From the NCBI GenBank assembly GCA_965228475.1, contig OZ245817.1, forward strand, positions 2,656,001-2,720,000: a DNA stretch of 64,000 nt, given 5' to 3'. The notes under the pieces were generated by a model. The model did not search any database. It was not told the DNA's origin and saw nothing but the letters and a program-made list of their open reading frames with translations. This document shows, piece by piece, positions 32,377 through 56,170 of this stretch; within the stretch, counting starts at the first letter, position 1, and the number at the start of each line of letters is the position of its first letter. The translations under genes and the position numbers were made by a program. The DNA comes from Myxococcota bacterium (GTDB taxonomy: Bacteria > Myxococcota_A > UBA9160 > JAFDDA01).

Positions 32377-35274
32377 ATGACGGCTCCGACCCGAACGGAG
32401 ACGAGCCCCAGCTCCGCCCACGCGCCGCGCTACGCGACGGCGTGGTGCGCCGTGGCCTTCGGCTCCGGCGCCGCCGCGTTGATCTTCCAGACGCTCTGGT
32501 TCCGCGCCGCCGGGCTCTCGCTCGGCAACGGCATCTGGGCGAGCAGCGTCGTGCTCTCGGCGTTCATGGCCGGCCTCGCCCTCGGCAACGGACTCGCCGC
32601 CCGGCGCGCGGACGGCGTCGCCCGGCCCGCCCGGCTCTATGCGTGGCTCGAGACGGCCATCGGGGCGAGTGGCTTCCTCGTCGTCGCGGGGCTTCCGTGG
32701 CTGACCGTGCTCCTCGGCCCGGTACTCGCTTCCCTCCGCGACACCCCGGAGCTCTTGAACCCCTTCCGCCTGACGCTCGCCTTCGGCGTGTTGATGATCC
32801 CGGCAACGGCCATGGGCGCCACGCTGCCGGTGCTCGTGAAGGCGCTCTCCCGGCACGACCCGAGCTTCGGCCGGGTGCTCGGCCGCCTCTACGGATGGAA
32901 CACGCTCGGCGCGGTCGCCGGGGCCCTCTCGGGCGAGGCGTTCCTGATCGCCCAGTTCGGCGTGCGCGGAACGGCCGTCGTCGCGCTGGTCGTGAATCTC
33001 CTCTCCGCCGCCGCGGCCCTCGCCCTCGGACGCTCGGCCCACGAGGCCGAGCAGGCGGCACCCGCCGCACGGCCCACGCCTCCCGCGGCCCGGGCCGGCA
33101 TCTCCCGGCTCCTCGTCGCGGCGTTCCTCTCGGGGGCGATCTTCCTCGCGCTCGAGGTCGTGTGGTTCCGCTTCCTCGCGCTCTTCGTGTACGGCACCGG
33201 GCTGGTCTTCACGGTGCTCCTGGCCGTCGTCCTCGCCGGCATCGCGCTCGGCGGGCTGCACGCGGCGCGCTGGCTTCGCGACGGCCGCCGCGCCGCACCG
33301 GCCCTCCCGGCCCTCGCCCTCGCCTCGGCCTGCGCGTCCCTGGCCGGGTACGCGGGATACGGCGCGGTCCTCGACGCGTTCCTCCAACCCGGGCATGCGG
33401 CCGCCGCTCTCTGGCACGTTGCGTTGCTCGCGATCCCCTTGATGGCACCGGCGGCGTGGCTCTCCGGCGTGCTCTTCACCGCGCTCGGTGAGGCCGCCCG
33501 GGAGCGGCTCGGCGGCCAGGCCCGGCCGGCCGGCCTGTTGACCCTCGCCAACACCTTGGGCGGCGCGGTCGGATCCCTCGCCGGAGGATTCCTGCTCCTC
33601 CCCCGCCTCGGCATGGAGGGCTCGATCCTCCTCCTCGCCGGCCTCTACGTGGGCATCGCCGCGCTGACCTTCCCGCAGGCCGGCGAATCGGGCGAACGGG
33701 GGGGCGGACGGCGGCTCGGCGCCGCGGGCGCCCTCGCGTGCGCCCTGCTCGCACTGCTCGCCGTCTTCCCGTACGGCGCGCTGCGCGACCGCCACCTGAT
33801 CCACCCGACGCGCGCCTTCGAGGAGCCGGGCGCGCACATCGCGGCCGTCCGCGAAGGTCTCCTCCAGACGATCGTCCTGGTCGAGACGGAGCGCTTCGGC
33901 CAGCCCCTCCACCATCGGCTGTTCACGGACGGCTTCAGCATGTCGGCGACGACGCCCCACTCGCGGCGCTACATGAAGGCCTACGTCTACCTCCCCGTGG
34001 CACTCCACCCCGCACCGCGCGACGCCCTGCTCATCAGCTACGGCGTCGGCTCGACGGCCAAGGCGCTGACGGACACGCGAGCGCTCGAACGCATCGACGT
34101 GGTCGACATCTCTCCCGACGTCCTGGCGACGAGCGCCCTCATCTTCCCGGAACCCGGGAGCGACCCGCTCGACGACCCGCGCGTGACCGTGCACGTCGAA
34201 GACGGACGTTTCTTTCTGCAGACGACGAGCCGACGCTACGACCTCATCACGAGCGAGCCGCCGCCGCCCAAGTACGCCGGCGTCGTGAACCTCTACAGCC
34301 GCGAGTACTTCGAGCTGATCCGCGAGCGGCTGAACGAGGGCGGGCTCGTGACCTACTGGCTCCCGGTCCACAACCTCTCGGAATCCGACGCCCTGGCGAT
34401 CTCGCGGGCCTTCTGCGACGCCTTCGCCGACTGCACGCTCTGGAGCGGCGCCGGAATGGACTGGATGCTCGTCGGGACCCGCGGCGGGCTCTCACCGGTC
34501 GACGAGGCCCAGTTCGCGCGCCAGTGGCAGGACCCCGTCGTCGGGCCGGAGCTGCGGGCCGTCGGCTTCGAGTCGCCCGAGTTCCTCGGCGCGACGTTCC
34601 TGGCCGGCACCGAGACGCTGCGCGCGTGGACCGCCGACGTGGCGCCGGTCGTCGACGACTTCCCTCTGCGCATCTCCCACGAGCCCGTGACGCCCTCGGA
34701 CACCCATGCCTCCACCTTCTTCCGCGACGTGCTGGCGGTCGGCGCGGCGGCCCGTGAGTTCGACGCCAGCCCCTTCGTCCGTTCGCTCTGGCCGGAGGCG
34801 CTGTTCGAGCGGACGCGGCGCGTCTTCCCCTGGCAGCGAATCGTGAACTCCCGGCTCGTCTACGACGGCGGCGCGGCGACCGAGCGCGACCTGCATGCCG
34901 TCCTCACGGAGACGGAGCTGCGCACCCTTCCGCTCTGGCTCCTCGGAACCGAGGTCGAGGAGGTCGCCTTCGCACGGAAGGCCGCCGCAGGGAACGGAGC
35001 CACCGCGAAGGCAGAGCCGATCCGCGCCTTCGGGAGCCTCGCCGAGCGGGACTACGCCGCCGCCTCCGAATGGCTCGCGCGAGCGCGCCGGAGCGACCCG
35101 GCCGATGCCCGCATCGCGAGCCTCGAGGTCTACGCCCTCTGCCTGGCCGGCGAGACCGAGCGCGCCGGCGAGCGGGCACGCGCCCTCCTGAGCGATCATC
35201 CCGAAGCGGCGGGCAGCGATGCCTACTGGCGCTTCCTCAACGAAACGTTCTCGCTCCCGGACCCTCGCGTATGA
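32377..35274 (+). CDS. Fused MFS-like membrane domain / spermidine-synthase-like SAM-fold protein with C-terminal helical (TPR-like) region
   Basis: Duplicated 6-TM repeat (SG...W.R...; LYGWNTLG and LANTLGG) plus a 13th TM. SAM fold: LLISYGVGST, VVDIS, EDGR.FL, YDLITSEPP. Confidence 0.85.
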   Translation: MTAPTRTETSPSSAHAPRYATAWCAVAFGSGAAALIFQTLWFRAAGLSLGNGIWASSVVLSAFMAGLALGNGLAARRADGVARPARLYAWLETAIGASGFLVVAGLPWLTVLLGPVLASLRDTPELLNPFRLTLAFGVLMIPATAMGATLPVLVKALSRHDPSFGRVLGRLYGWNTLGAVAGALSGEAFLIAQFGVRGTAVVALVVNLLSAAAALALGRSAHEAEQAAPAARPTPPAARAGISRLLVAAFLSGAIFLALEVVWFRFLALFVYGTGLVFTVLLAVVLAGIALGGLHAARWLRDGRRAAPALPALALASACASLAGYAGYGAVLDAFLQPGHAAAALWHVALLAIPLMAPAAWLSGVLFTALGEAARERLGGQARPAGLLTLANTLGGAVGSLAGGFLLLPRLGMEGSILLLAGLYVGIAALTFPQAGESGERGGGRRLGAAGALACALLALLAVFPYGALRDRHLIHPTRAFEEPGAHIAAVREGLLQTIVLVETERFGQPLHHRLFTDGFSMSATTPHSRRYMKAYVYLPVALHPAPRDALLISYGVGSTAKALTDTRALERIDVVDISPDVLATSALIFPEPGSDPLDDPRVTVHVEDGRFFLQTTSRRYDLITSEPPPPKYAGVVNLYSREYFELIRERLNEGGLVTYWLPVHNLSESDALAISRAFCDAFADCTLWSGAGMDWMLVGTRGGLSPVDEAQFARQWQDPVVGPELRAVGFESPEFLGATFLAGTETLRAWTADVAPVVDDFPLRISHEPVTPSDTHASTFFRDVLAVGAAAREFDASPFVRSLWPEALFERTRRVFPWQRIVNSRLVYDGGAATERDLHAVLTETELRTLPLWLLGTEVEEVAFARKAAAGNGATAKAEPIRAFGSLAERDYAAASEWLARARRSDPADARIASLEVYALCLAGETERAGERARALLSDHPEAAGSDAYWRFLNETFSLPDPRV

Positions 35275-36917: not shown

Positions 36918-36929
36918 CGGCGGCGCTCC

Positions 36930-39386
36930 TCAGCCGGCTCCGTTGGCCGCCACCGAGGCCTTTGCCTGCTGGGCCGCCTCGTGCTTCGGCTCGATCCGCA
37001 GCGCCTCGCTGAAGGCCTTGCGGGCGTCCTCTTCCCGGCCCTGCGCCTTGAGGGCGAGGCCCAGGTGGTAGTGGTACTCGGCGACCTCGCGGCCGTTCAC
37101 GCGCGCCAGCTCGATGGCCGAGCGGAACTCGAAGGCCGCCGGCTCGAGCAGGCCCTTCTTCAGGTAGACGAAGCCCAGCGTGTCCGCGACGGCATCGTCA
37201 TCCGGGCGGCCCGCCTTCACGGCGCGCGCCAGCTCGACGGCCCGGTCGAGGTCCTGGCCCTCGGTGGCGAGGACGAAGGCGAGGTCGTTCTGGATCGCGA
37301 GTTCGCCCGGCGCGGCCGCGTGCGCCTCTTCGAGTCGCGCGCGTGCCTCGCCGACCTCTCCACGCTCGAGGCGCAGCCGGCCGACCTGCCAGAGCGATGC
37401 CGCTCCGAGCGTCCCGGCCTCGCGCGCCTCCTCGAGGAGCTCGAGCGCTTCGTCCTGCTTGCCGAGCTCCGTGAAGAACGCGACGAGCATTTCCGGTACG
37501 CGGTACGGGCGGGGGTCGAGCGCGAAGGCCTCGCGGATCGAGGCCTCGGCTTCCTTCCTACGATCGAGCGCCCACAGGATCTGTGCCCGAAGGCCCAGCA
37601 TGGTCCGGCGGCCGACCTTCTCGTTGTAGGCGTCGAGACGCGCGAGCGCCGCCTCGCCCCGGCCGGTCTGGAGATCCGAAAAGACGGCGGCATTCACGAC
37701 CCGGAAGTCGTTCGGGTAGAGCTCCACGGCCTTCATCAGGTAGTCGCGGTTTCGCTCCGGGTCCGTCTGCGACTCGTACCGGTTGTAGAGCAGCACGAGG
37801 TTCACGCGCGGCCGCTCGACGTCGAGCAGGCGCCGCACGATCCGCCGCGCCGCCTCGGTGTTCCCGGTCTCGTAGAGCCCGCGCAGGCGATACTGCCGGA
37901 CGTCGGCGGTGATCGGGAGGCCGAGGCGGAGCAACTCCCGGTAGGAGCGGAGCACGCCGGTCCAGTCGTCCTTGCGGGCGAGCATCCGGATCCGGACGCG
38001 GTGCGGAAGGTTCGTCGCGAGCGGCGCCAGTTCGATGGCCCGGTCCGCCGCCGCAATGGCCGCGTCCGCGTTGCCCTGTCGCGCCTCCGCCACGGCGAGC
38101 TGCCGCAGGACGTCGGCCCGCTCCACCTGCCCGGCCAGGGGGCGGAGGACGTCGAGAGCGCCCTCGACATCATCGCGCTGGAGGGCGAGCTTCGCCTTCG
38201 CGAGCTGGGTCAGGGGGCTCTCGGGGTGCTTCGCCTCGAGCTCCGCGAGGACGCCGGCCGCCCCCTCGAGATCCTTCTTCGAGATGAAGAGCTCGACGCG
38301 CAGGGCCGTCAGGTCGGCGGTGTCCCCCACCTCGCTCGGCAAGGAGGCCAGGTGTTCGAGGGCCTTGTCCTGCTCCCCCTTCTCCTCGAGGAACCGGACG
38401 TAGCCAGCCTGGAGGACCAGGTCATCGGTGCGCCCTTCGAGAGCGCGTGCCCAGACGTCTCCCGCCGAGCCTCCCGCCTGCTCTTCGAGGCGCGCCAGCA
38501 GGCGCCACGCGGCGGCGGAACTCGGGTCGGCCTCGACCCAGCTCTCGAGCGTCCAGCGCGTGAACCCCGTCTCGCGCTCGCGGTTCGCCAGCAGCCGCGC
38601 GTCGCGAACGACGGCCAGCATGCCGCCCTCGTCTTCCTTCTCCTTGGCGATCGCGAAGGCCCGCTTGAAAGCCTCCATCGAGTCCTCGGCGCGGCCCTCC
38701 CAATCCGCATAGGCGAGCGCGATGTGGAGCCAGTCGAACCAGGCTCCCTGCCGCTCGTAGTCGGCCGTGAGCTTCGCGGCGCGCCGGTGCGCGGCGATGG
38801 CCGCTTCGTGAATGGCGTCGGGCGTAGCCTGCCCCGTGGCAGCGAGCTCACGATGGCGGGACCGGTGCACCGCGCCGACCACCCGGTGGGCGACGACGTA
38901 CTCGGGGTCGAGCTCGGTCGCCGTGAGCGCCGAAGCCAGCGCACCCTCCGTATCGGCGCTCAGCAGCTTCAGCTCCGCCATTCGCGTATGCGCTTCCGCG
39001 TTCTGGGGCTCGAGCTCGAGGACCTCTTCGATCAGCGCCCGCGCCGCGTCCGGGTCGCTCGCGTAGAAGGCGGGCGCCTGCTTGAGTGCGGCCTCGGTGT
39101 TCGTCGGGTCGAGCCGGTAGGCCTCGCCGTAGTAGAAGGCCGCGCGCTCCGGCTTGTTCAGCTGGGCGAGCAGCTCGGCCAGCTCCATGTTGAGTTCGCC
39201 GCTCTTCGGGCGCACGCGAAGGGCCGACTGCAGCTCGACCAGCGCCGAGCGCAGGTCGCCCTCTTCCTGGTAGCGCTCCGCCTCGGCGACGTGCTTGGCG
39301 ACGGTCTCCTCCTCGGAAGCGCAACCGACTGCGAAGGCGGCGGCCGCGACGGCGATGACGAACAGGCGAATCGGAGACGAGGACAT
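36930..39386 (-). CDS. PrsT-like TPR lipoprotein
   Basis: Lipobox FAVGC, continuous TPR repeats, C-terminal NDLAFVLA...DTLGFVY...YHYHLG. TGATG-coupled to the upstream paralog. Confidence 0.8.
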   Translation of the reverse strand: MSSSPIRLFVIAVAAAAFAVGCASEEETVAKHVAEAERYQEEGDLRSALVELQSALRVRPKSGELNMELAELLAQLNKPERAAFYYGEAYRLDPTNTEAALKQAPAFYASDPDAARALIEEVLELEPQNAEAHTRMAELKLLSADTEGALASALTATELDPEYVVAHRVVGAVHRSRHRELAATGQATPDAIHEAAIAAHRRAAKLTADYERQGAWFDWLHIALAYADWEGRAEDSMEAFKRAFAIAKEKEDEGGMLAVVRDARLLANRERETGFTRWTLESWVEADPSSAAAWRLLARLEEQAGGSAGDVWARALEGRTDDLVLQAGYVRFLEEKGEQDKALEHLASLPSEVGDTADLTALRVELFISKKDLEGAAGVLAELEAKHPESPLTQLAKAKLALQRDDVEGALDVLRPLAGQVERADVLRQLAVAEARQGNADAAIAAADRAIELAPLATNLPHRVRIRMLARKDDWTGVLRSYRELLRLGLPITADVRQYRLRGLYETGNTEAARRIVRRLLDVERPRVNLVLLYNRYESQTDPERNRDYLMKAVELYPNDFRVVNAAVFSDLQTGRGEAALARLDAYNEKVGRRTMLGLRAQILWALDRRKEAEASIREAFALDPRPYRVPEMLVAFFTELGKQDEALELLEEAREAGTLGAASLWQVGRLRLERGEVGEARARLEEAHAAAPGELAIQNDLAFVLATEGQDLDRAVELARAVKAGRPDDDAVADTLGFVYLKKGLLEPAAFEFRSAIELARVNGREVAEYHYHLGLALKAQGREEDARKAFSEALRIEPKHEAAQQAKASVAANGAG

Positions 39387-41806: not shown

Positions 41807-42030
41807 GAGGCCTCCGGCGGAAAAAAAAGAACGCGCGAGTATAGCCGCGGAACCCGCGGGGACGAGCGGCTCCCAAGCTTCATCGGCGCCTCGCGGCCAG
41901 GCTGGAGACGCGAGCGGCGAAATCCCACTCTCGAGGGGAGGTTACGACCCTCCCCCGGGCCCGACGACGCGCCGCGGAACGGACCCTGGGTACGTCGAAC
42001 CGGGACGCACAGGGCAATTCCATGCGCCAG

Positions 42031-42066: not shown

Positions 42067-42164
42067 TCCCCGGCCGGGTGAGGCCCCTTCCCCGCGGGGC
42101 GTACCAGATGGTTTTATTCAACTACTCCAGCCACTTACAGCATTTTTCAGGGACGGACCAACCC

Positions 42165-42180
42165 TGGCATCGTGATTGCA
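42165..42180 (+). promoter_or_regulatory. Sigma54 (-24/-12) promoter of the PEP-CTERM gene
   Basis: TGGCATCGTGATTGCA matches TGGCAC-N5-TTGCW with exact spacing. Confidence 0.85.
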
Positions 42181-45892: not shown

Positions 45893-47338
45893 ATGCGTCG
45901 AGACCGAGCCTGGATCGCCGCCATCGCCTGCGCAGGACTGCTCCGCGTCCTTCTCCTCGCCGCTGCCTTTCCCTACTTCCACCCGATCGACGAACACCAG
46001 CACGTCGAGACGATCCACCGCTGGTCGCGGGGCACGCTTCCCGGCCCCGAGACGAGCCGGCTCGGCGACCCGGTGGTCGACTGGGCCCTCCGCTTCGGAA
46101 CCTTCGAGTACCTCGATCCGAACCCGCCGCCGCCCTACTTCGCACGGCCCGGCTACCGGCCGGGCGTCGCCTGGGAAGGGACGGCGCGGCGCGCTTTCGA
46201 AGCCGTCGTGAACCAGGAAGCCGAGAGCCCGCCCGGCTACTACGCACCGGCGGCCCTCTGGTACCGCGTGGGCGAACTCGTTCTCTCCGATCAGGCCCTG
46301 CTGTTCTGGGTCCGTGCGCTCAACGGGTTCGCGCTCCTCGCGCTGGTCCTCCTGAGCCATGCCTGGCTCCGCCGCCGACACCCGGACGATCCTCTCCTCT
46401 ATCGCGGCGTGCCGGCCTTGATGGCCTTCCTCCCGCAGGACGCCTTCTACGGGATCGGACCGGACGGCGCCTGCGCCCTGCTCGGCGGGCTCGCCTTCAT
46501 GGCGGCCGTCGGCGCGGCAGAGGCCGACGGGACGCGCGACGGCGCGGGCCGGGATGTGCGAGCGGGCCTGCTGGCCGCCGTGGCGTTCCTCGCCAAGTAC
46601 ACGAACCTGCTCTACTTCGGGCTGCTCGGGCTCGCCTACGCCGCCCGAAGCCACGCCCACGGCGCTGCCGCCGCGGCCCGCCGGGCGGCCGCCGCCCTGG
46701 GCGTCGCCGCCCTCGCCGCCGGCGCGTGGATCGCGCGCAACCTCGCGGTCCTCGGAGACCCCTTCGGAACGGCCAGGAAGGTCGAGCACCTCGAGTGGCA
46801 GGCCCGGCCGTGGGGCGAGCTCTTCTCGCACCCGATCTTCACGCCCGCCGGGTTCGCAACCTGGTGGACGGAGACGCTCGTCCACTTCTGGCGCGGGGAG
46901 TTCCGCTGGCTCGGGGAGCCGATGACCTGGCCCGCGCTCGACACCGCGCTCTGGGCCGTGTCCTCGGCCGCCCTCGCGGCGGGGACGGTCTCCGCCTGGC
47001 GGGCCGCCCGGCGGCGGGACCGGCTCGAGCCCTTCGCCGCCCTCGCCGTGGCGGGAGGGTTCGCGACGCTCGCCGTCCTCTCCACGCGCTTCACCTTCGC
47101 GGACTGGGGGAACCCGACGCGCATGCACCCCTACTTCACGGAGGGGCGGCTCATCCTCGGGGTGCTGCTCCCCTTCGCCGTGGTCTTCGTGCGGGGCGTG
47201 GGGACACTGAGCGAACGAGTTCCGAACGGAGACCGCCTGGCAGCCTGCGCGCTCGGCTCCTGGCTCGCACTCGTCACCGCAGCGGATTTCGTGCTCGCGG
47301 CGCCCGCCTTCGCGAGCCCCTGGAACCTCTTCCCCTGA
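45893..47338 (+). CDS. GT-C fold membrane glycosyltransferase (DUF2142/ArnT-PMT-like)
   Basis: PIDEHQH after TM1, ESPPGYY, FLAKYT, EGRLI, about 10-11 TM segments. Confidence 0.7.
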   Translation: MRRDRAWIAAIACAGLLRVLLLAAAFPYFHPIDEHQHVETIHRWSRGTLPGPETSRLGDPVVDWALRFGTFEYLDPNPPPPYFARPGYRPGVAWEGTARRAFEAVVNQEAESPPGYYAPAALWYRVGELVLSDQALLFWVRALNGFALLALVLLSHAWLRRRHPDDPLLYRGVPALMAFLPQDAFYGIGPDGACALLGGLAFMAAVGAAEADGTRDGAGRDVRAGLLAAVAFLAKYTNLLYFGLLGLAYAARSHAHGAAAAARRAAAALGVAALAAGAWIARNLAVLGDPFGTARKVEHLEWQARPWGELFSHPIFTPAGFATWWTETLVHFWRGEFRWLGEPMTWPALDTALWAVSSAALAAGTVSAWRAARRRDRLEPFAALAVAGGFATLAVLSTRFTFADWGNPTRMHPYFTEGRLILGVLLPFAVVFVRGVGTLSERVPNGDRLAACALGSWLALVTAADFVLAAPAFASPWNLFP

Positions 47339-47354
47339 CCCGCCCGCGGGCGTC

Positions 47355-49172
47355 TCAGTTCCCGAGCAGCTTGGCCTGGAGCAGCCGGTTCATCCAATCG
47401 ATGATCGGCGGCACCGACTCGTTCTCCTCGGCGGTCAGCACGTCGAGGTGGGCGTAGCCTTCGACGATCACGACCTCCTGGTCCGTGCTCGCGATCGAGC
47501 CGAGGTAGTTCGCGAAGGAGGCCTCCGTGGTGGCCAGGCCGTTCGAGCCGCCGATGCCGAGCACCGGAACGTCGACGTTGGCGTTCTGGGTCACGTTCAG
47601 GAGCTCCGGTGCCCCGAGCGCGCTCGAGTCGCGGCCGAAAGACAGGTCGAGGTTCACGCGGCCGGAGACGAAGTACCACTCGCTCGAGTTCCCCGTCTCG
47701 TAGAGCGAGCGCAGGAAGACGTCGACGTCCGTGACCTCGCGCTCGACCCCCCAGCGCCCCGTCTCGCCCGGCGGCGGCTTGGGCCCGAGATCCTCGATCG
47801 CGCACCCCGTCAGGCCGAGCACGGCCGGCTGCGGGTCGAGCGGCGGACAGGTCAGCGGATCCGGGTCGCCCGCGTCGAAGCGCGGGCTGTCGTGCGGGAT
47901 CCACGTGCGCGTGACGCCCTCGTCGACGGCCAGGTAGAAGGAGCCGGGGATCAGCCCGCCGATCGGGTTGAAGAGGTTCGAGCCGTTCGCACTGAAGCCG
48001 AAGGAGGCGCTGAAGGCGGCGTTGGTGCTGAACTCGTCGTCGAGGAAGAAGCCGGCGAGCGAGCGGTTCGTCATCGGTGCCTGGAGCAGGATGCTGACGG
48101 GCAGCCCGCCGAAGATCGGCGTCTGCTGCAGGATCGAGTCCGATTCCGGGTCGAAGCTTCCGGCGACGCCGTTCAACTCGCCCGCCGCGCCGATGTCCGT
48201 GGCGTCGACGAAGCCGAACAGATCCGCCAGGAAGACGTCGCTCCCGCCCGGGGTCTCGAGGTCGGTGATGCTGTCCTGGTACGCGGTCAGGTCCGGCGCG
48301 GAAGCGGACGGTCCGCGCGTGCCGCCGCCCTCGAGCAACAGCAGGCCATCGACGAGCTCGTAGCCCGCTTCGACGCCGCCCGGCGTCACGTCGAAGTCGT
48401 AGGCCGCGAAGACGCCGGTCCAGGTCGTGCCCATCGAGTGGCCTCCGAACAGGACGAGGCCGTCCTCGCCGACGATCGCGCGCGCGGCGAGCACGAGCTC
48501 CCGCCAGTCGCGCACGTACGTGTCGACGCCCCAGTGCGCGAAGATGCCGCGCAGGTCGTCTTGCGAGAGCTTCTGGAAGTCCGAGTCGCCGTCGCCGGGG
48601 ACCGCGTCCGGAAGCGTGAACGGGCCATCGGGCCCGGGGACGCCGTCGCGGTCGATCGTGGCGTCCGGGAAGTAGAAGCGGACGCCCTCCGCGATGGCGT
48701 CGCGCATGGCCTCCTCGTCGCTCCCGGCCGCTTCCGCGCCCGCGCGCGCGTAGAGCGCGCCGCGCCGGTCCTCGAGCTGGTTCGTGCGCCGGTCCACGGC
48801 CCAGACCTCGAGATTTCCGTTCTGCTCGCGCACCAGATCCCGCGCGAGCGGGTCGAAGTTCCCGGCTCCGCCGAGGAAGCCCGGGATGAGGATCAGGATC
48901 ACGCGCGGCGGCGCGTCGGCATCGGCGAGGGCGGTGCGCACGTAGGTCACCCGGTTCAGGTCCGGTGCGTCGCCGAGGATCTGGCGGATCGGCGAGTCCG
49001 CCGGGATCGCGTACTCCTCCGCGGCGCCGGAACCCGGCGTGTGGACCTCGTTGAAGCCCGCCATCTCGAGGCGATCCTGCACGATCTCGACGGCGGGGTT
49101 GCACTGGTTCGCCCCCATCGCCGCCAGCCCGAGCACACCGACGAACAGCACGATTCGCGTTCGACCCACCAC
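47355..49172 (-). CDS. Secreted alpha/beta-fold hydrolase (possible lipoprotein)
   Basis: GTG with a GGAGG RBS 2 nt after the PEP-CTERM stop. Signal ending MGANQC, IPGFLGG oxyanion, GHSMG nucleophile, YAHLD catalytic His. Confidence 0.78.
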   Translation of the reverse strand: MVGRTRIVLFVGVLGLAAMGANQCNPAVEIVQDRLEMAGFNEVHTPGSGAAEEYAIPADSPIRQILGDAPDLNRVTYVRTALADADAPPRVILILIPGFLGGAGNFDPLARDLVREQNGNLEVWAVDRRTNQLEDRRGALYARAGAEAAGSDEEAMRDAIAEGVRFYFPDATIDRDGVPGPDGPFTLPDAVPGDGDSDFQKLSQDDLRGIFAHWGVDTYVRDWRELVLAARAIVGEDGLVLFGGHSMGTTWTGVFAAYDFDVTPGGVEAGYELVDGLLLLEGGGTRGPSASAPDLTAYQDSITDLETPGGSDVFLADLFGFVDATDIGAAGELNGVAGSFDPESDSILQQTPIFGGLPVSILLQAPMTNRSLAGFFLDDEFSTNAAFSASFGFSANGSNLFNPIGGLIPGSFYLAVDEGVTRTWIPHDSPRFDAGDPDPLTCPPLDPQPAVLGLTGCAIEDLGPKPPPGETGRWGVEREVTDVDVFLRSLYETGNSSEWYFVSGRVNLDLSFGRDSSALGAPELLNVTQNANVDVPVLGIGGSNGLATTEASFANYLGSIASTDQEVVIVEGYAHLDVLTAEENESVPPIIDWMNRLLQAKLLGN

Positions 49173-49174
49173 GA

Positions 49175-49750
49175 CTACGACCTCCGTCCGGAGGCGGCGG
49201 CCCACGCCAGCCCCGACATCAAGAAAACGGCGAGCCGGCCCGGCTCGGGGACGGCCGCGACGATCGAGACGCCGATCATCCCGCCCGTCGGCGGATCCAC
49301 GGTGAGGTCCGCGAGCAGACAGAGCTCGCCGGCACACGCGGCATCCGGCGCGAGGCTCCCGGCGACGTTCGTGACCGTGAGGTCGGCGCCGTCCACCGAG
49401 AGGTGGAGCGCCGGGATGAGGAAGCTGCCGTCCGGGAAGAGCACGCCCAGGCCCGGGTTCGCGAGGCTGCCGTCGAGGCCGATCGAGAAGCCTCCGCCGG
49501 TCAGCGCGAGGGCGACCACGTCGAGGGCCGTGTTGCTTCCGACCGGCGGCAGGGCGCCGAGCTCGAGGGTGATCGTGCCCGAAAGCGGAGACCCGCCGAT
49601 CGTGCTCTGGGCGTCGTCGACCTCGAGGAAGAGCGGCACGGCGGCGGCGGGCGCGGCGAACGCGAGCCCGAGGGCCAGCGCGGCGGCGAGCACCGTCGGC
49701 CGAGGCCAGGAGTTGGGCGGGAGCGGGAGCCGGGAACGAGCGGCAGGCAT
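49175..49750 (-). CDS. PEP-CTERM sorting-domain surface protein
   Basis: Signal peptide ending APAAA and C-terminus VPEPGRLAVFLMSGLAWAAASGRRS. Confidence 0.82.
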   Translation of the reverse strand: MPAARSRLPLPPNSWPRPTVLAAALALGLAFAAPAAAVPLFLEVDDAQSTIGGSPLSGTITLELGALPPVGSNTALDVVALALTGGGFSIGLDGSLANPGLGVLFPDGSFLIPALHLSVDGADLTVTNVAGSLAPDAACAGELCLLADLTVDPPTGGMIGVSIVAAVPEPGRLAVFLMSGLAWAAASGRRS

Positions 49751-49887
49751 GAAGACCTCTGGGGCTTCCACCTTCCCGGGTGAACGACCGTTATATCACG
49801 CCGGCGGGGCCTTTGCCGGACGGACTGCGGGGCCGCCGGGCCTTGGCCGGTTTGTCCTCTTGCCGGCTCGTTGCTACCGCAGGCCGG

Positions 49888-52689
49888 GTGACGCGCCCGA
49901 CCCCTCGCGCCTTCGCCTCGTCCTCGCCCCGCGCGCTGGCCCTCGCCTGGACCGTGGCGACCGGCTTCTGCGGCCTCGTCGACGAAGTCGTCTGGCAGCG
50001 CGCCCTGTCGGTCCTTCTCGGCTCCCACGCGGAGGCCACCGCGGCGGTGCTCGCCCTCTTTCTCGGCGGACTGGCCGCCGGCTACGCGGGCTTCGGCCGA
50101 CTCTGTCACCGGCACCCCGAGTGGACCCGCGGCGACCTGCTGCGACGCTACGCCGCCGCCGAGGCCGGCATCGGCCTCCACGCCCTCGCCTTCCCGTGGC
50201 TGTTCGCGGCCGTGCGGGATGGCTCGGCGGCGCTCCCGGCGGGAGGCTTCGCGGCCGAGACCGCGCTCTGCGCCCTGCTCGTCGTTCCGCCGGCCTTCCT
50301 GATGGGCGCCACGGTCCCCCTGCTGACGGACGCCCTGGCCCGGGACGCCGACGACGCGACGCGCCTCCACGCCCAGGTCTACGGCTGGAACACCCTCGGC
50401 GCCTTCCTCGGCGCCCTCGGTGCGGGCTTCTTCCTGCTCCCGGCGCTCGGCGTCGTCGGCTCGCTTCGCGTGACCGCGGCCGTGAACTTCGCCGCGGCCC
50501 TCGGCTTCTTGCACCTCGCGCGGCAAGTGGGCGAGGCGCCGCGCGTGGCCTCCGCGCAAGAACCCGATCGCCCGGCGTCCGGCCCGTCGCTCCCTTGGGA
50601 AGCCACGGCCGCCGCGGGCTTCGGCTTCGCGCTGATGACGCTCCAGACCGTGGCCGTCCGGGTCTCGGGCCTCGCCTTCGGCGCTTCGCCCGCCACCTTC
50701 GCGATCGTCGTCGCGACCTTCGTGCTCTGCATCGCCCTCGGGAGCCTGGCCGTCGCACGCTTCGCAGCCGTCCGCTCGCTTCCCGCAGCGCCCGTCGCCC
50801 TCGGCGCCGCCCTCCTGCTCGCAGCGCTCTTCCCCTTCGTCGACGACGCGGCCTTCGTGGCCCATCGCGTCCGCGTCCTCCTCCCGAACGACACGACGGG
50901 GTTCCACCTCTTCCAGGCCGCGACCGCCGGGCTGGTGTTCGCCGCCCTCTGTCTACCGCTCGCCCTCTCGGGCTCCCTCCTGCCGCTGATGTTCGACGAC
51001 CTGCGCCAGCGCCACCGCGAGCTCGGGGCCGCAGCGGGCCGGCTCTACGCCTGGAACACCGTCGGGAGCGTGCTCGGCGCTCTCGTCGGCGGCTACGCGC
51101 TGCTCCGCTTCCTGGACCTGCACGCGGTCTACCGCGTCGGCGTGGGCGCCGTCGCCATCGCCTCGGCGCTGCTCGCGCACCGCTCCCCGCAAGCCCGGCC
51201 CATCGCGCTCGGCGCCGCGAGCCTCGCGCTGGTTCTCGCGTTTCTCCCGGCCTGGACGCCCGAGAAGCTCTCGACGGCCCACCTGCGCCAGCGCCACGGC
51301 GTCGGCACGGTCTTCGAGACGCCTGCGGATCTCGCCGCGTACCAGCACGCCGGCGGGATCCTGTTCGCGACGGACGACCCGACGACGACCGTCCTCGTCA
51401 ACGAACACACGACCGACGACGACCGCTCCTCGCGCGCGCTCTTCACCAACGGAAAGTCCGACGGCTCGCTCTGGCCCGACTACCCGACCATGGCGCTCGC
51501 CGGGCTGATCCCCTGCGCCCTCGCGGACCGCTGCGAGAACGCCTTCGTGATCGGCCTCGGGACGGGGGTGACCGCCGGCGAGCTCGCCGCCCTGGATGGC
51601 GTCGAGCGCGTGGCGGTGGCCGAGATCTCGACGGGCGTGGTCGAAGCCCTTCCCCTCTTCGCGGAGGGGAACCTCGGCCTCGGCGACCGGCCCGCATTCG
51701 AGCTCCGCCGCAGCGACGCCTACCGCTCGCTCCTCCGGGAGCCCGGCCGCTTCGACGTGATCGCCTCCGAGCCGAGCCACCCCTGGGCGATCGGCGTCGA
51801 GAACCTCTTCGCCCTCGAGTTCCTGCGCGCGGCGCGGGACCGGCTCGCGCCCGGCGGCGTCTTCGCCCAGTGGATCCACGCGTATGAGATGGACGACGCG
51901 ACCCTCGCCCTCGTCCTGCGGACCTACGCCGCCGCGTTTCCCGAGGTGGCCGTCTGGTACGCGTCGGGCCCCGATCTCCTGCTGCTCGGCTTCGGCGACG
52001 TGCCCCCTGCGCGCGACCCCGAACGCCTCGCCGCCCGCTTCGCCCGGCCGGACTTCGCCGCGGGCTTCGCGCGGGCCGGCGTCGACTCCCTCTCCGGGCT
52101 CCTCGCGCACGAACTCGTCCCGGGCGGCGTGATCACCCGGGCCGCGCTGCCGGGCCCGATCCACACCCTGCTCCACCCCCGGCTCGCCCACGCGGCGGCG
52201 GCCGCGTTCTTCCGGGACGACCGCGCGCGCCTGCCGAGGCTCGACGGCCCGGATGCCCGAGCCCGGGCCCTCCACGCCCGAGCCCTCGGCCTCGCCATGC
52301 GCGACGGGAAGCTCTCGGAGGACCAGTACGAAGCCGTGGTCCGCCGCCTCTGCGTCTCCCGCGAGTGGGAATGCACGACGGCGCTCGGGAGCTGGCGCCA
52401 CGACTACCCGGACTCGCCTCGCCCCCACGCCGTCCGCGCGGAACTCGCCGAGAGCCAGGAGCCGCACCTGCTCGAATCCCGCATCGACCTCCTCGCCGGG
52501 CTCTTCGGCGACGGACTCGGCCCCCTCGACGCCGAGTCCACCCGGCGCGTCCACGAGCACTACACCGCCTACTATCACCACGCGCTGCCGTTCCGGCCCG
52601 AAGCCATCGCCCGGACGCTCGAGCGCTGCGAAGGCGAAGGCTGCGAGGCGCTGCGGACGGCCGTGCGGAAGGAGGAACCCCATGAGTGA
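49888..52689 (+). CDS. Fused MFS-like / spermidine-synthase-like SAM-fold protein (second paralog)
   Basis: Duplicated 6-TM repeat (VYGWNTLG and LYAWNTVG), LFTNGKSDG, VIGLGTGVT, VAEIS, FDVIASEPSHPW, FAQW. Start uncertain (GTG 49780 or 49888). Confidence 0.85.
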   Translation: MTRPTPRAFASSSPRALALAWTVATGFCGLVDEVVWQRALSVLLGSHAEATAAVLALFLGGLAAGYAGFGRLCHRHPEWTRGDLLRRYAAAEAGIGLHALAFPWLFAAVRDGSAALPAGGFAAETALCALLVVPPAFLMGATVPLLTDALARDADDATRLHAQVYGWNTLGAFLGALGAGFFLLPALGVVGSLRVTAAVNFAAALGFLHLARQVGEAPRVASAQEPDRPASGPSLPWEATAAAGFGFALMTLQTVAVRVSGLAFGASPATFAIVVATFVLCIALGSLAVARFAAVRSLPAAPVALGAALLLAALFPFVDDAAFVAHRVRVLLPNDTTGFHLFQAATAGLVFAALCLPLALSGSLLPLMFDDLRQRHRELGAAAGRLYAWNTVGSVLGALVGGYALLRFLDLHAVYRVGVGAVAIASALLAHRSPQARPIALGAASLALVLAFLPAWTPEKLSTAHLRQRHGVGTVFETPADLAAYQHAGGILFATDDPTTTVLVNEHTTDDDRSSRALFTNGKSDGSLWPDYPTMALAGLIPCALADRCENAFVIGLGTGVTAGELAALDGVERVAVAEISTGVVEALPLFAEGNLGLGDRPAFELRRSDAYRSLLREPGRFDVIASEPSHPWAIGVENLFALEFLRAARDRLAPGGVFAQWIHAYEMDDATLALVLRTYAAAFPEVAVWYASGPDLLLLGFGDVPPARDPERLAARFARPDFAAGFARAGVDSLSGLLAHELVPGGVITRAALPGPIHTLLHPRLAHAAAAAFFRDDRARLPRLDGPDARARALHARALGLAMRDGKLSEDQYEAVVRRLCVSREWECTTALGSWRHDYPDSPRPHAVRAELAESQEPHLLESRIDLLAGLFGDGLGPLDAESTRRVHEHYTAYYHHALPFRPEAIARTLERCEGEGCEALRTAVRKEEPHE

Positions 52690-52891: not shown

Positions 52892-52904
52892 CGCCTGCGG
52901 CGGC

Positions 52905-53876
52905 CTAGCCGTCGAGGTGCCGACGAAGCTCCCGCAGCGCGCCACGGTGGTTGGCGGGAAGCGAACGCAGGGCCGAGCGGGGAGCCCGGCGCGGCGGGAC
53001 GCCGCCCGCGTGCTCGATGAAGCGCACCACCCAGCCCCGGCGGCCGCTGAACGGTGCGAGCAGCTCGAGCATGCGTTCGTCGCCGGCCCGCCGCTCGCCC
53101 GCGAGGTTCCAGGCGACGTGGCTCGGCAGATGGAGGTCTCCGATCGGGAACGCGTCCGGCCGACCGCCCGCGTAGAGTTCGAGCGAGCTCACCGTCCACG
53201 GCCCGATGCCGGGCAGCGCTCGAAGGCGGGAGGTCGCCCCCGGTGCCCCGAGGTGTCCGAATCCGGAGAGGCGCGCGGCCTCCCGTCCGACGTTCCGCAG
53301 CGTTGCGCCGCGCCTGGCATCGAGGCCGAGGGGCGCGAAGGCCCAGTCGGGCAGCCGGGCGACGCGCTCGGGATCGGGCGGCAGCCACAGGGCGGGGAAC
53401 GGGCCCGGCGCGGGCTCGGAGGCGATGCTCACGAGCGCGCGGTGGCTTCGCGCCGCCTCCTTGCCCGAGACCTTCTGCTGGAGAACCAGCAGGAAGAGGA
53501 ACGGCAGCCAATCCTCGAGGCACGAAAGGCGAAGCCCCTCGCAGGCCCGGACCAGCCTGCGAATCCGCGGCGGGAAGCCCTCCGGCCGGGGTGCGTCGCT
53601 GGCCAGCCCGAGCAGGGCCGGCGCGGATTCGAGCGCCGCCTCCGCCCCCGCGCCGTAGGCGACGAGGCGAAGCGAGCCGGGCCGGTGCAGGATGCACAGC
53701 GTCGCCGGCCCGAGAGCGGTCCGCTCCGCGCGCAGCCACCCCACCTCGCCGCCGGCTTCGACCACGCGCTGGGTCGGATCGGCGAAGCCCGAGGAGAGCG
53801 GCCGCGCGATCGCCCGGAGATCGAGGGGGCCCTCGAAGGCGAGGTGCCGCTCGAGCGGGGCCGCGCCGGCGTTCAC
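52905..53876 (-). CDS. AlkA-like HhH-GPD DNA-3-methyladenine glycosylase
   Basis: VLQQKVSG, HhH LRALPGIGPWT, DAFPIGDLHL, LLAPFSGRRG. GTG overlaps the STT3 stop. It is the real part of ORF 52905..56135. Confidence 0.85.
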   Translation of the reverse strand: MNAGAAPLERHLAFEGPLDLRAIARPLSSGFADPTQRVVEAGGEVGWLRAERTALGPATLCILHRPGSLRLVAYGAGAEAALESAPALLGLASDAPRPEGFPPRIRRLVRACEGLRLSCLEDWLPFLFLLVLQQKVSGKEAARSHRALVSIASEPAPGPFPALWLPPDPERVARLPDWAFAPLGLDARRGATLRNVGREAARLSGFGHLGAPGATSRLRALPGIGPWTVSSLELYAGGRPDAFPIGDLHLPSHVAWNLAGERRAGDERMLELLAPFSGRRGWVVRFIEHAGGVPPRRAPRSALRSLPANHRGALRELRRHLDG

Positions 53877-56170
53877 CGGGAGAAGTCCGGGGCCGCGATG
53901 CGGCGGCCTTCGCGGACGTCTTCCTCGCCGACGTCGACCGTGCGCTCGGCACCGCTCGCAAAGACCCCGTACCCGCCGCGGCTTCGAACCCGGCCGTTGG
54001 CTTCCCGCGTCGCGTAGGGAACCCGGAGACGGTAGACGCCGTCGGTGCCCGCCCGGGTGCGGGAGCCCCACGCGAACTCCCGGCCACCGGCCGTTGCCAG
54101 GGCGAGTTCCACCGAGACCTCCGCTCCGGGCGGCGCCCGCCCTTCGAGCTCGGCCCCTCGGACGAACTCGTAGAGCTTGAAGAACGGCTGCTCGGGCGCC
54201 CAGGGCTTCGGCCGGGCCTCGTACACCAGACGGTGACGCTCGAGGGCCGGCACGTCGACGACGACCTCCCGGAACGCCGCGGGCAGGGTGCGCGCCCGGG
54301 AGCGCTGCGCCGCCTGGCCGTCCGCGAAGAAGGCTCGGGCGATCATCGAGCGGGGTCCGAACTCCGCGAGCGCGCCCTGGCGCCGATACTCGAGGACGAC
54401 GTAGCGGACGCCGAAGGCATCGAGGATCTCCGCGGCTTCGGGCTCGCTCGCCGCGAAGTAGCGGGCCATCGCATCCATGCCCTCGGGTCCGAGGTCGTCC
54501 CCGAAGTTCGTGACGACCGCGGGGCGTTCGCCGGCGGTCAGCAGGATGTGCCCGTTCGCCCAGAAACCCAGCACGCCGTACTCCGGCGGCGAGCCGCCGC
54601 GGGCTTCGAAGCCGCTCGTCGGCGGAGAGTTGCCGCGCAGCCAGCTGGCCAGGCGATGCAGCTCGCGCCGCTGGAGCTGGTCCGCGGCGAGCCTCATCGG
54701 CTGGCCCGCACGCAGCGCAGCCCGGCGCTCGAGGGCCGGGGCGAACCCCTGGAGCGTCGGGAGCAGGAGCAGGAGACCGAGCGCCACCGTCCCTCCAGCG
54801 AGCAGCGCGCGGACGAACCGCCCCCGCTCGGCGAGTCGCAGCCGCCGGGGCAGCTCGACGACGAAGGTCCAGCCGAGCAGCAGCGCCAGGAGAACCGAGA
54901 AGGGATTCGCGAAGCGCCGCTGGGCCAGCGTCGCCAGCGCCAGCCCGACCAGCAAGACGAGGAACAGCCACGCGCTCGGATCGAAGGGCCGCTGGCGGAG
55001 TCGGGCGAGGAACGCCCAGGCCAGAACCGGAACGAAGAGGAACCCACCCGAGAGCTGCTGCAGGCCCTCGGCGAGGCGGCCCCGCGGGTCCGGGGCGAAC
55101 AGGGCCTGGGACTCGGCGACCTGACTCTGGAAGGACTCGGTCCGCGCCAGCCAGGACCACATGCGGCCCGGTGCTTCCCCGAGCTCGGGCAGGAGGAGGC
55201 CGCTCCCGAGCGCCAGCGCCGCCGCCGAGCCGAGGGCCACGGCGAGCCGCTGGGCCGGCGGGCGATGGGCCACGCTGGCGAGGGCCGCGAAGCAGAGGCT
55301 CGCGCAGGCGAGCAGCCAGGGCTGGAAGCCGCCGAGCACGACCGGCGCGAAGCCGCCCCAATAGGCGTAGTCGCGGCCGGCGAAGGGCAGGAGGAAGAGG
55401 AGCGAAAGTCCGTGGACCAGGCTGGCTCGCAGGCACAGGGCGCGGGCGAACCTCGCGTCGAGGAAGACGGCCCAGGCCGCGAACGTCGCGGAGACGAGCA
55501 GGAGCTGGAGGAGCGACCCGGGCCAGACGAGGAGCGACCCCGCCTGGGTGGCTGCCAGCGCCCCGACGGCAGCCACGTCCCGGCCAGCCCAGCGCTCGGC
55601 CCCCGACGCCCGGAGGGCGAGTCCGCTCCCGGCGGCGAGGAAGGCCAGGGTCACCAGGGGCTCCGCCGCGTGGTGGTCGAGCATCCCGAAGCGGCTGTAG
55701 ACGGCGTGGGCCGGGAGGATCGCCAGAACGCCGGCGGCGGCGAGGCCCGAACCGGGCCCGAAGCGCCAGGCTCCCCAGGCGAAGCAGCCGAGGATCGCCG
55801 CACCCCCGAGCCAGACCGGGACGGCCATGGCGAAGGCCGCCAGCCGCTCGGGCGGCACGTCCGGCCCGAGCCGGAGCCGCGCCGCCGCCGCCACGCTCCA
55901 ATCGAGGCCCGGAGGCCAGATCACGTCGCCGCCCGTAGGGTGGTTCAGGTAGGGGTCCCGCTCGAGGACCTCGGGGAAGTTCGCGTAGCTGAAGCAAACG
56001 CGGCGCAGGTGGTAGTAGGCATCCGGTCCGACCGGGCGGATCCCCTCGGCGGTCCGGACCGTCGGCGCATCGAGCATGCGCAGGTTCGCCCCGAGGGCGA
56101 GCACACCCAGGAGCAAGAGCCCGGCAACGGCCCACGCGGCCCGATCGCGGCGGTGTTCGGCGTCCCCCAC
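53873..56170 (-). CDS. STT3-family oligosaccharyltransferase, archaeal AglB-like
   Basis: GPDAYYHLRR, DPYLNHPTG..IWPPG, DHHAAE, QVAESQAL (TIxE-like), QRRF, YGVLGFWANGH at the WWDYG position, C-terminal FKLYEFVRGA...RLRVPY. About 13 TMs. Confidence 0.85.
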   Translation of the reverse strand: MGDAEHRRDRAAWAVAGLLLLGVLALGANLRMLDAPTVRTAEGIRPVGPDAYYHLRRVCFSYANFPEVLERDPYLNHPTGGDVIWPPGLDWSVAAAARLRLGPDVPPERLAAFAMAVPVWLGGAAILGCFAWGAWRFGPGSGLAAAGVLAILPAHAVYSRFGMLDHHAAEPLVTLAFLAAGSGLALRASGAERWAGRDVAAVGALAATQAGSLLVWPGSLLQLLLVSATFAAWAVFLDARFARALCLRASLVHGLSLLFLLPFAGRDYAYWGGFAPVVLGGFQPWLLACASLCFAALASVAHRPPAQRLAVALGSAAALALGSGLLLPELGEAPGRMWSWLARTESFQSQVAESQALFAPDPRGRLAEGLQQLSGGFLFVPVLAWAFLARLRQRPFDPSAWLFLVLLVGLALATLAQRRFANPFSVLLALLLGWTFVVELPRRLRLAERGRFVRALLAGGTVALGLLLLLPTLQGFAPALERRAALRAGQPMRLAADQLQRRELHRLASWLRGNSPPTSGFEARGGSPPEYGVLGFWANGHILLTAGERPAVVTNFGDDLGPEGMDAMARYFAASEPEAAEILDAFGVRYVVLEYRRQGALAEFGPRSMIARAFFADGQAAQRSRARTLPAAFREVVVDVPALERHRLVYEARPKPWAPEQPFFKLYEFVRGAELEGRAPPGAEVSVELALATAGGREFAWGSRTRAGTDGVYRLRVPYATREANGRVRSRGGYGVFASGAERTVDVGEEDVREGRRIAAPDFSR

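Follow-up and report, generated by a model that had tools for sequence, protein, structure and literature searches.

A recurrent gene module of PEP-CTERM proteins, GT-C-type membrane enzymes and MFS/spermidine-synthase fusions in Myxococcota: a candidate surface-protein modification system

Within a 64,000-nucleotide stretch of a Myxococcota bacterium genome (hereafter the window; positions 2656001-2720000 of contig OZ245817.1, a single-contig genome of 5.0 Mb and ~72% G+C), the 13 genes g3-g15 at 32377-56170 bring together PEP-CTERM proteins, TPR lipoproteins, GT-C-type membrane enzymes and two fusions of an MFS transporter with a spermidine-synthase-like domain (MFS/SpdSyn). The original prediction, drawn from the sequence alone, took this span for a periplasmic assembly line that O- and N-glycosylates PEP-CTERM proteins and decorates them further. 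Four results carry our analysis: the gene content itself, the GT-C fold modelled for g4, the homology of g15 to AglB and the joint recurrence of the module families in many relatives. The explanation that we tentatively favour is that the genes make up an envelope module, conserved within the order and specific to it, and that the outward-facing enzymes of this module would modify the co-encoded PEP-CTERM proteins in the periplasm, before or during their sorting by an exosortase.

Recurrence of the module in related genomes

We searched 41 genomes of the order, the genome under study included, and mapped the flanks around the matches with the window proteins and a PEP-CTERM regular expression. 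At the thresholds of this census, crude for both gene calling and tblastn (55-150 bits), MFS/SpdSyn fusions were detected in 38/41 genomes, g4-like genes in 32/41, AglB-like genes in 23/41 and g10-like genes in 8/41; the PEP-CTERM expression was strict. With a g4 profile at E<=1e-60, four candidates being scored per genome, 31 of 47 other genomes of the order gave a match and none of 253 sampled elsewhere in the phylum.

A genome of the same genus (G001) keeps both halves of the cluster, at 50-67% protein identity. One of its contigs (C168) carries a PEP-CTERM gene, g6, g5, g4 and g3, the g3 ortholog (66% identity) adjoining that of g4, and another (C101) carries a PEP-CTERM gene, g9, g10, a fragment of g11, g13, a sulfatase gene, g14 and g15. 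A lack of conserved linkage in relatives, named beforehand as a refutation of the original prediction, was not observed: farther away as well, the genes recur as a cassette, in several families of the order. One strand carries a g9-type and a PEP-CTERM gene; the other, divergently, carries g6 and g5, followed by a g4-like gene or two. Some of these cassettes also have an AglB-like gene and an MFS/SpdSyn fusion directly in line. The clearest case is G029:C25, with the g9-type and PEP-CTERM genes on the minus strand and g6, g5, AglB, MFS/SpdSyn and a gene for a TPR-bearing protein of 558 amino acids (aa) on the plus strand, separated by spacers of 7-23 nt. Similar loci are present in G030, G011, G019, G021, G022, G024, G026, G036, G040, G146, G175, G254 and G284. 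At G011:C89, the AglB gene precedes two PMT_2 proteins, so that modules with several GT-C enzymes are met repeatedly.

Neighbours within 10 kb were then counted in the relatives alone, around 39 g4-like sites (24 genomes) and 27 AglB-like sites (21 genomes). A large TPR lipoprotein was encoded near 17/39 g4-like and 9/27 AglB-like sites, a sulfatase-family gene near 17/39 and 14/27, an MFS/SpdSyn fusion near 10/39 and 7/27, and a PEP-CTERM motif near 9/39 and 5/27, respectively; AglB-like genes neighboured 4/39 g4-like sites and g4-like genes 5/27 AglB-like sites. At six additional g4 loci, taken from genomes of the order outside this count, g5/g6-like matches were always present (5/6 at 150 bits or more), with an AglB-like gene at 3/6 and an MFS/SpdSyn fusion at 3/6. 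As a background, the genome under study holds one other g5/g6-like locus, which lies 4 kb from another AglB paralog, together with six MFS/SpdSyn loci, five AglB paralogs and one g4, and simple arithmetic gives a chance co-location in a 22-kb span of ~1-3% per family. When the scan was centred on AglB, most of ~28 full-length Myxococcota-type AglB loci had no module genes within 10 kb. AglB alone is a poor anchor, and the linkage is visible only from g4 and the TPR pair.

By gene order, the tight core of the module is the g6-g5 pair with g4, often or usually accompanied by a g9-type and a PEP-CTERM gene. The other members are more loosely attached. Genes of the g10 type are near module genes in G001, G012 and G016, and at G012:C47 such a gene lies beside a PEP-CTERM tail and sulfatases; g13-type fusions are near the module in G016, G027, G033 and G037. 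At G016:C4 and G033:C218, g13-type fusions, g4, the TPR pair, g9-type genes and PEP-CTERM genes are found within 25-50 kb, with a g10-like gene also at G016:C4. The 24-kb unit initially proposed is thus tight for the TPR pair and g4, with g9 and PEP-CTERM genes, and looser for g10, the g13-type fusions and AglB proteins of the g15 clade.

The GT-C-type enzymes g4 and g10

An AlphaFold2 model of g4, based on a 35-sequence alignment, reached a predicted local distance difference test score (pLDDT) of 93.6 and a predicted TM-score of 0.92. When this model was compared with the PDB by Foldseek, the matches comprised Archaeoglobus fulgidus AglB, ArnT, Pmt4, yeast and human STT3, ALG9, DPY19 and AftB, and the list also included EmbB, AftA, AftD and PglB structures. 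The query-normalised TM-scores were 0.27-0.45 for the membrane enzymes, and the C-terminus of g4 matched TPR proteins. Residues D44-D45, directly after helix 1, are invariant in the 35 sequences. In view of the modelled fold, its structural matches and this invariant pair, g4 is best described as a GT-C-fold enzyme with a TPR domain. Sequence profiles gave no match of g4 to PF08409 (DUF1736), PF02366 (PMT), PF13231 (PMT_2) or the GT-C Pfams even at E<=10, and an Atlas search with g4 ranked the TMTC/DUF1736 (PF08409) cluster only seventh, with a score of 0.98. The predicted label 'TMTC-like' therefore fits the architecture of g4, GT-C fold and TPR domain included, without Pfam support.

Three GT-C enzymes had been proposed, of which g4 stands by its fold and g15 by its AglB/STT3 domains. 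The third, g10, resembles DUF2142 proteins in language-model features only: DUF2142 clusters of the Atlas score 0.99, with 233-234 of 256 features, and none of the Pfam profiles, PF09913 (DUF2142) included, matched at E<=10.

g15 is an AglB-type homolog with an altered acceptor motif

As expected for the predicted STT3 enzyme, g15 scores above the cut-offs of AglB_L1 (67.2 vs 23.6 bits) and AglB_core-like (41.5 vs 27 bits), and its close homologs also carry PF02516. Its best NCBIfam match, TIGR04154 (the AglB subfamily associated with archaeosortase A), stays at 269.8 bits under a cut-off of 450, which places g15 outside that subfamily. At the level of sequence, the AglB-type homology is nonetheless established. 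D50, D165-H166-H167, E353 and R418-R419 are invariant in 15/15 sequences; D50, D165-H166-H167 and E353 presumably represent the catalytic acidic motifs of external loops 1 and 2 and the Glu of loop 5. In the alignment with A. fulgidus AglB-S, FWANG of g15 is opposite WWDYG, by which the sequon is recognised at its +2 Ser/Thr, and g15 and its 14 closest homologs share the form x-W-(A/S/D/T/E)-x-G-H (15-sequence alignment). Since the WWD motif is lost and the PEP-CTERM family has no conserved sequon, classical N-glycosylation appears unsupported and N-glycosylation is not to be assumed, so this part of the original prediction is not retained.

The genome encodes five AglB paralogs in differing contexts, g15 and four others at 633940, 676754, 1839977 and 2562580. 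One of those flanked by GT2 and Methyltransf_23 genes also has a g6-like TPR protein of 904 aa 4 kb off. At ~2 kb from one of the four lies a second HhH-GPD gene (G000:C1:2560035-2560820), with GT2 and methyltransferase genes in between; the G001 ortholog of g14 likewise keeps its position downstream of g15. A quick maximum-likelihood tree of 26 AglB-like proteins, with SH-aLRT as the only support measure, separated two clades with a support of 100 each. In this tree, g15 and its G001 ortholog form a long branch next to three AglB proteins that also neighbour g4-like or other module genes. Recruitment of AglB to the module looks, from these sequences, both repeated and facultative.

Putative outward-facing domains of the MFS/SpdSyn fusions

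Both predicted MFS/SAM-fold (S-adenosylmethionine-fold) fusions, g3 and g13, score above the NF037959 subfamily cut-off of 40 bits (Table 1), and they fall short of the SpeE equivalogs (PRK03612, 123.8 vs 472; TIGR00417, 68.4 vs 249.55). The AlphaFold2 model of g13 (28 sequences) has a pLDDT of 88.4, and its soluble domain superposes on SpeE structures with target-normalised TM-scores of 0.60-0.70. In the profile alignment to Thermus thermophilus SpeE, GyGtG lies opposite GGGEG, the acidic residue being replaced by Thr or Ser, and sePsnP lies opposite IDLTDP, where the first position remains acidic, as Glu, whereas the second Asp (D-x-x-D-P) is lost. The glycine-rich loop and a mid-strand Asp are invariant. 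The acidic residue of GGG(D/E)G separates enzymes using decarboxylated SAM from those using SAM; as this residue is lost, the donor of the MFS/SpdSyn enzymes may not be decarboxylated SAM.

The g13 model displays 12 helices, arranged 6+6 around a central loop, followed by a hydrophobic 13th helix. The latter is hydrophobic in 28/28 MFS/SpdSyn sequences and precedes a conserved LP(A/R)W motif. With the N-terminus inside, the predicted inside loops carry on average 15.3 Lys+Arg residues vs 2.25 for the outside ones, and inside exceeds outside in 28/28 sequences. Since the SpeE-like domains of g3 and g13 are located after the conserved 13th helix, they are predicted to be periplasmic, in agreement with the outward-facing SAM-fold domains originally proposed. 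The cysteine pairs C858/C865 and C950/C955, present in 23/24 g13-type sequences, could form disulfides (periplasm) or a zinc site (cytoplasm) and were discarded as ambiguous evidence of topology. A sulfatase gene beside every MFS/SpdSyn paralog was also considered and dropped, since Pfam searches at three such loci showed unrelated contexts. Judging by titles and abstracts, no paper on a function of this fusion family was found.

g9 is an alkaline-phosphatase/sulfatase-superfamily member with a putative hydroxyl nucleophile

g9 exceeds the PF00884 cut-off of 25 bits, conserves the metal-ligand motifs of its superfamily (DTLRAD and SDHGE) in 12/12 sequences, and has a single N-terminal hydrophobic anchor. 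The membrane-anchored sulfatase fold that had been predicted is hence present; the formylglycine cysteine is not. Compared with choline-sulfatase, g9 has Thr at this position, and its segment STWTKTSM lacks the Pro and Arg of C-x-P-x-R. A Ser or Thr occupies the position in 12/12 g9-type sequences, in which QS(S/T)WTK is equally conserved, and partial NCBIfam matches are to EptA, CptA, LtaS and YejM. The missing formylglycine motif argues against sulfatase chemistry. In this superfamily, a hydroxyl nucleophile goes with phosphoester rather than sulfate chemistry, and the putative nucleophile of g9 accordingly points to the former.

The outward orientation predicted for the enzymes is consistent with these models: g4 has its DD pair after helix 1 and a C-terminal TPR domain, g9 its one N-terminal anchor and the MFS/SpdSyn fusions their Lys+Arg bias.

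PEP-CTERM proteins, TPR lipoproteins and exosortases

Two of the three PEP-CTERM genes that had been predicted, g7 and g8 (~92% identical), score above the PF07589 cut-off of 20.7 bits, and the genome holds two exosortases. The third, g12, is assigned at the motif level: it ends in VPEP...RRS and gives NF038129 at E 0.009, with no Pfam PEP-CTERM match, and it was not found in G001. The PEP-CTERM proteins encoded next to the module are homologous. They share a signal peptide MRKLF..., a mature part of ~250-300 aa and the tail ...VTLVSP...LPAF...L.FVPEPGTLLLL.SG..GL...GR.R, and consist of 19-33% Ser+Thr with ~1% each of Asp, Glu and Lys. This richness in Ser and Thr fits an O-linked modification, as far as composition can tell. 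Each full-length protein has 1-6 N-x-S/T sequons (g7 a single one, one partial ORF none), and across the family no sequon is conserved in position. Another open reading frame (ORF) with a PEP-CTERM-type tail, VPEPAAMLLFLLGGLGLAGMGRRR, is located at 2951-3769 of the window on the minus strand; it has no Pfam domain at E<=1e-5.

The TPR lipoproteins g5 and g6, both predicted, were found with TPR matches and lipobox cysteines. Their assignment to PrsT did not hold: g6 reaches 215.1 and g5 131.1 bits on TIGR02917 (PrsT), below the equivalog cut-off of 312.2, and no protein of the whole genome exceeds it. According to Haft et al. (2006, PMC1569441), PEP-CTERM systems are tied to exopolysaccharide loci, and PEP-CTERM genes are preceded by a sigma-54 motif. 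The sigma-54-like candidate before g7 was rejected as evidence, being a single site with one mismatch and the number of matches in the window not exceeding chance.

The two exosortases, which the original prediction left to be located, are ~140 and ~550 kb from the cluster and hence unlinked to it. An exosortase is present in 40/41 genomes of the order, this one included, so its co-occurrence is uninformative. Among the loci examined, none has an exosortase within the module. The only near case found is in G009, with no more than ~8 kb between an exosortase (G009:C4:26570-27277) and both a g4-like gene and a PEP-CTERM tail.

Gene inventory of the locus

Genes were called by third-position GC, with translation afterwards, and scanned against Pfam and NCBIfam; the high G+C content yields many spurious ORFs. 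All of the predicted gene set was located in the span, some family assignments being weak (Table 1). An ATGA overlap joins the g3 stop to the g4 start, confirming that g4 is translationally coupled to g3, and g6 and g5 overlap by TGATG. The protein g11, proposed as a secreted alpha/beta hydrolase, has a GHSMG motif of the G-x-S-x-G form seen in nucleophile elbows, its Pfam matches being marginal and below cut-off (Hydrolase_4, E 0.0097; Abhydrolase_1, E 0.031). One gene inside the span, g14, had been left out of the earlier list; it is probably an unrelated HhH-GPD gene outside the system. In line with the earlier claim, no exosortase, Wzx/Wzy, GT-A or GT-B was found among the 37 window ORFs scanned, with gaps uncalled at ~3.8-6.0, 15.3-16.5, 20.5-21.3 and 22.3-24.1 kb.

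Table 1. Features of the cluster, in window positions
Feature	Position	Strand	Description
g3	32377..35274	+	Fused MFS/spermidine-synthase-like protein, 965 aa, helical C-terminal domain; NF037959 86.8 bits, PF01564 55.1 bits
g4	35271..36917	+	GT-C-fold membrane enzyme (modelled), 548 aa, ~11 helices and C-terminal TPR domain
g5	36930..39386	-	TPR lipoprotein, ~818 aa; many TPR Pfam matches, AVGC lipobox
g6	39386..41806	-	TPR lipoprotein, 806 aa, upstream partner of g5; LALGC lipobox
sigma-54-like candidate site TGGCATCGTGATTGC	42165..42179	+	~140 nt upstream of g7; one mismatch to TGGCAC-N5-TTGC
g7	42317..43063	+	PEP-CTERM protein, 248 aa, G/A/V/T/S-rich, almost uncharged; PF07589 27.1 bits
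g8	43367..44110 (ORF opens 43355)	+	Tandem paralog of g7; PF07589 27.1 bits
g9	44361..45776	+	Membrane-anchored alkaline-phosphatase/sulfatase-superfamily enzyme, formylglycine motif absent; PF00884 161.5 bits
g10	45893..47338	+	Polytopic membrane protein, DUF2142/PMT_2-like, predicted GT-C; nine hydrophobic segments
g11	47355..49337 (true start probably near 49160)	-	Secreted/anchored serine-hydrolase-like protein
g12	49175..49771	-	Small protein, PEP-CTERM-like C-terminus VPEPGRLAVFLMSGLAWAAASGRRS, motif level only
g13	49780..52689	+	Second fused MFS/spermidine-synthase-like protein, 969 aa; NF037959 112.9 bits
g14	52905..53870	-	HhH-GPD/AlkA-like, downstream of g15; NF007641 E 2e-4
g15	53873..56170	-	AglB/STT3-like oligosaccharyltransferase homolog, FWANG in place of WWDYG

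Elsewhere in the window, a 776-aa protein (8640-10967, plus strand) is the sole sugar-nucleotide-type enzyme seen; its C-terminal half is a DegT/DnrJ/EryC1 sugar aminotransferase domain, and no family was assigned to its N-terminal half. Directly to the right of the cluster, a 1138-aa protein with faint beta-propeller matches only (56320-59736, plus strand) precedes two paired genes, DUF1800 and DUF1501 (59915-62686, plus strand).

Proposed mechanism and alternatives

In the mechanism that we tentatively favour, the PEP-CTERM proteins, rich in Ser and Thr and nearly uncharged, would receive sugars from polyprenyl-phosphate-linked donors through g4, g15 and probably g10, with the TPR domains and the g6/g5 lipoproteins as substrate holders. 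The putative Ser/Thr nucleophile of g9 would serve to attach or take off a phosphoester substituent. In g3 and g13, the MFS half would bring a donor from the cytoplasm, SAM or a relative, across the membrane to the fused periplasmic SpeE-like domain, which could then alkylate the PEP-CTERM protein or the glycan on it; ester trimming would fall to g11, and sorting of the PEP-CTERM proteins to an unlinked exosortase. We infer this chemistry from the families involved, and several points weigh against the scheme as a whole. It is gene adjacency only that designates the PEP-CTERM proteins as substrate; their enrichment near g4 is modest (9/39 sites with the strict expression), and the genome has other paralogs of the g7 family away from the cluster. 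Contig ends often truncated the flanks, the genomes compared are related and so not independent of one another, and the loci were chosen via matches of these very families. The scan of 37 window ORFs found no gene in the cluster that makes or flips a lipid-linked donor, and the GT2 and Methyltransf_23 genes that flank two other AglB paralogs have no donor-making equivalent in the window of g15. g15 itself lacks WWDYG, with A, S, D, T or E at the D position among its 14 closest relatives, and 5/6 AglB proteins adjoining the TPR pair are placed by the quick tree in a clade that has no member in this genome, g15 being in the other. The g13-type orthologs (40-57% identity) are mostly solitary, with module genes at ~2/20 newly fetched loci, and g10-like genes of 36-39% identity are solitary in 4/4 loci (G017, G031, G030 and G024). 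Finally, just after the 13th transmembrane helix Lys+Arg number ~2, which is indecisive for topology, and a SAM-fold enzyme in the periplasm would miss its usual cofactor supply.

The same genes could instead remodel a non-protein component such as an exopolysaccharide, lipopolysaccharide/lipid A or another glycolipid, the PEP-CTERM proteins being merely co-regulated matrix partners. The GT-C enzymes would then act like ArnT or Emb/Aft and g9 like EptA/LtaS, with the TPR lipoproteins as an export scaffold of the BcsC/PgaA kind. This alternative, somewhat unlikely in our view, is favoured by the presence of ArnT, EmbB, AftA, AftB and AftD beside protein glycosyltransferases in the Foldseek list of g4, by the Ser/Thr at the formylglycine position of g9 and its partial EptA, CptA, LtaS and YejM matches, by the absence of a PEP-CTERM gene from 30/39 g4 sites according to the regular expression, and by the association of PEP-CTERM systems with exopolysaccharide loci in their original description (PMC1569441). 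It agrees less well with a cluster that has no polysaccharide polymerase, flippase, GT-A or GT-B, and in which, in several families, a homologous PEP-CTERM protein is encoded next to the g9-type gene and divergently from the TPR pair. Moreover, a TPR domain fused to GT-C, as in g4, and AglB-type homology are typical of protein-acting enzymes (TMTC, OGT, STT3), and g9 has one membrane helix vs five in EptA. Unlikely, and more so than envelope remodelling, is that there is no single pathway, but a real core g3-g9 beside genus-specific genes g10-g15 with a general envelope theme, so that the 24-kb unit would be overstated. Indeed, g10, g11 and g12 accompany the rest only in the same-genus genome, g12 not even there; g14 is unrelated, and the solitary g10-like and g13-type genes and the five AglB paralogs in different contexts point the same way. 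On the other side, other families repeatedly have AglB-like genes and MFS/SpdSyn fusions as immediate neighbours of the TPR pair or g4, and the composite loci of G016:C4, G033:C218 and G012:C47 described above join several of the looser members to the module. Mere chance in a genome rich in envelope genes is very improbable. In its favour, the families are expanded in this order, with up to 21 MFS/SpdSyn, 5 g4-like and 5 AglB-like genes per genome and common tandem g4 pairs, and the genome under study has 20 sulfatase-family matches and 35 Pfam-level PEP-CTERM matches in 5.0 Mb. About 0.17 of the latter would be expected per 24 kb by chance (arithmetic), and g7 and g8, as a tandem duplicate, do not count as two independent cases. 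Recurrence in relatives speaks more strongly against chance than this density does: the same combinations and gene orders are found in at least 12 genomes of several families, far over the 1-3% expected per family.

A bolder version of the favoured mechanism would be a maturation line for surface proteins, in which the MFS transporter hands a cytoplasmic donor to the SpeE-like domain in the periplasm, SAM-family alkyl transfer outside the cytoplasm thus occurring for the first time, and a TMTC-like O-glycosyltransferase and an AglB-type transferase without an N-x-S/T reader also act on exosortase cargo. We consider this version doubtful, less probable than either of the two main alternatives.

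Significance and comparison with known systems

What is known of protein glycosylation in bacteria comes mostly from the Pgl, PglL and Pmt systems, and to our knowledge the modification of PEP-CTERM/exosortase cargo has been an open question since 2006. Judging by titles and abstracts, no paper was found on such a cluster or on a bacterial AglB family linked to PEP-CTERM genes; searches on PEP-CTERM and oligosaccharyltransferase returned an archaeal review only, and those on AglB in Myxococcota returned nothing. The families are individually known, and what is new is their conserved combination, the altered AglB motif and the predicted outward SAM-fold domain. The module thus provides a concrete conserved gene set through which GT-C enzymes and exosortase cargo are connected in bacteria. 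It also provides an AglB family of bacterial origin whose acceptor-reading motif is altered, and a possible rationale for the widespread MFS/SpdSyn fusions, in which the transporter could feed the donor to a catalytic domain facing outward. Confirmation of even one of these three points would lead to new enzymology.

The archaeal system of AglB with archaeosortase A/PGF-CTERM is similar in that g15 has AglB_L1 and AglB core-like domains and TIGR04154 as its best NCBIfam match, cargo-like proteins are encoded beside it and this genome sorts by a C-terminal signal with exosortases. It differs in its host, here bacterial, in the score of g15 on TIGR04154 (269.8 vs 450 bits), in FWANG instead of WWDYG and in the distance of the exosortases (~140 and ~550 kb); for the GT-C/TPR enzyme, the MFS/SpdSyn fusion and g9 as partners, we know of no archaeal counterpart. 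With the Campylobacter Pgl system, the cluster shares an STT3-family enzyme with a periplasmic C-terminal domain, and PglB structures are among the GT-C fold matches. However, it has no pgl-like GT-B, flippase or sugar-modifying genes, and g15 is of the AglB rather than the PglB type and does not keep WWD. The eukaryotic O-mannosyltransferases TMTC1-4/PMT are GT-C enzymes carrying TPR or MIR domains, which g4 resembles by its GT-C fold, the DD after helix 1 and the C-terminal TPR domain, and Ser/Thr-rich proteins are encoded beside g4; as g4 matches none of PF08409, PF02366 and PF13231, the likeness to O-mannosylation is architectural and derives from the model. Like the lipid A pair ArnT and EptA, the cluster combines a GT-C enzyme with a periplasmic phosphatase-superfamily enzyme that has a putative hydroxyl nucleophile, but g4 has a TPR domain, and g9 has one anchor helix and its best scores are to sulfatases over its C-terminal half.

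With the XrtA/PEP-CTERM system and its PrsT (Haft et al. 2006, PMC1569441), the cluster shares large TPR lipoproteins encoded next to PEP-CTERM proteins and the candidate sigma-54-like site before g7, whereas g5 and g6 are below the PrsT cut-off and the exosortase and exopolysaccharide genes are elsewhere in this genome. As for the fusions, g3 and g13 belong with NF037959 and the soluble domain of g13 superposes on SpeE; they are set apart from SpeE itself by scores far under the equivalog cut-offs, by altered active-site acids and by a 13th helix that predicts a periplasmic location.

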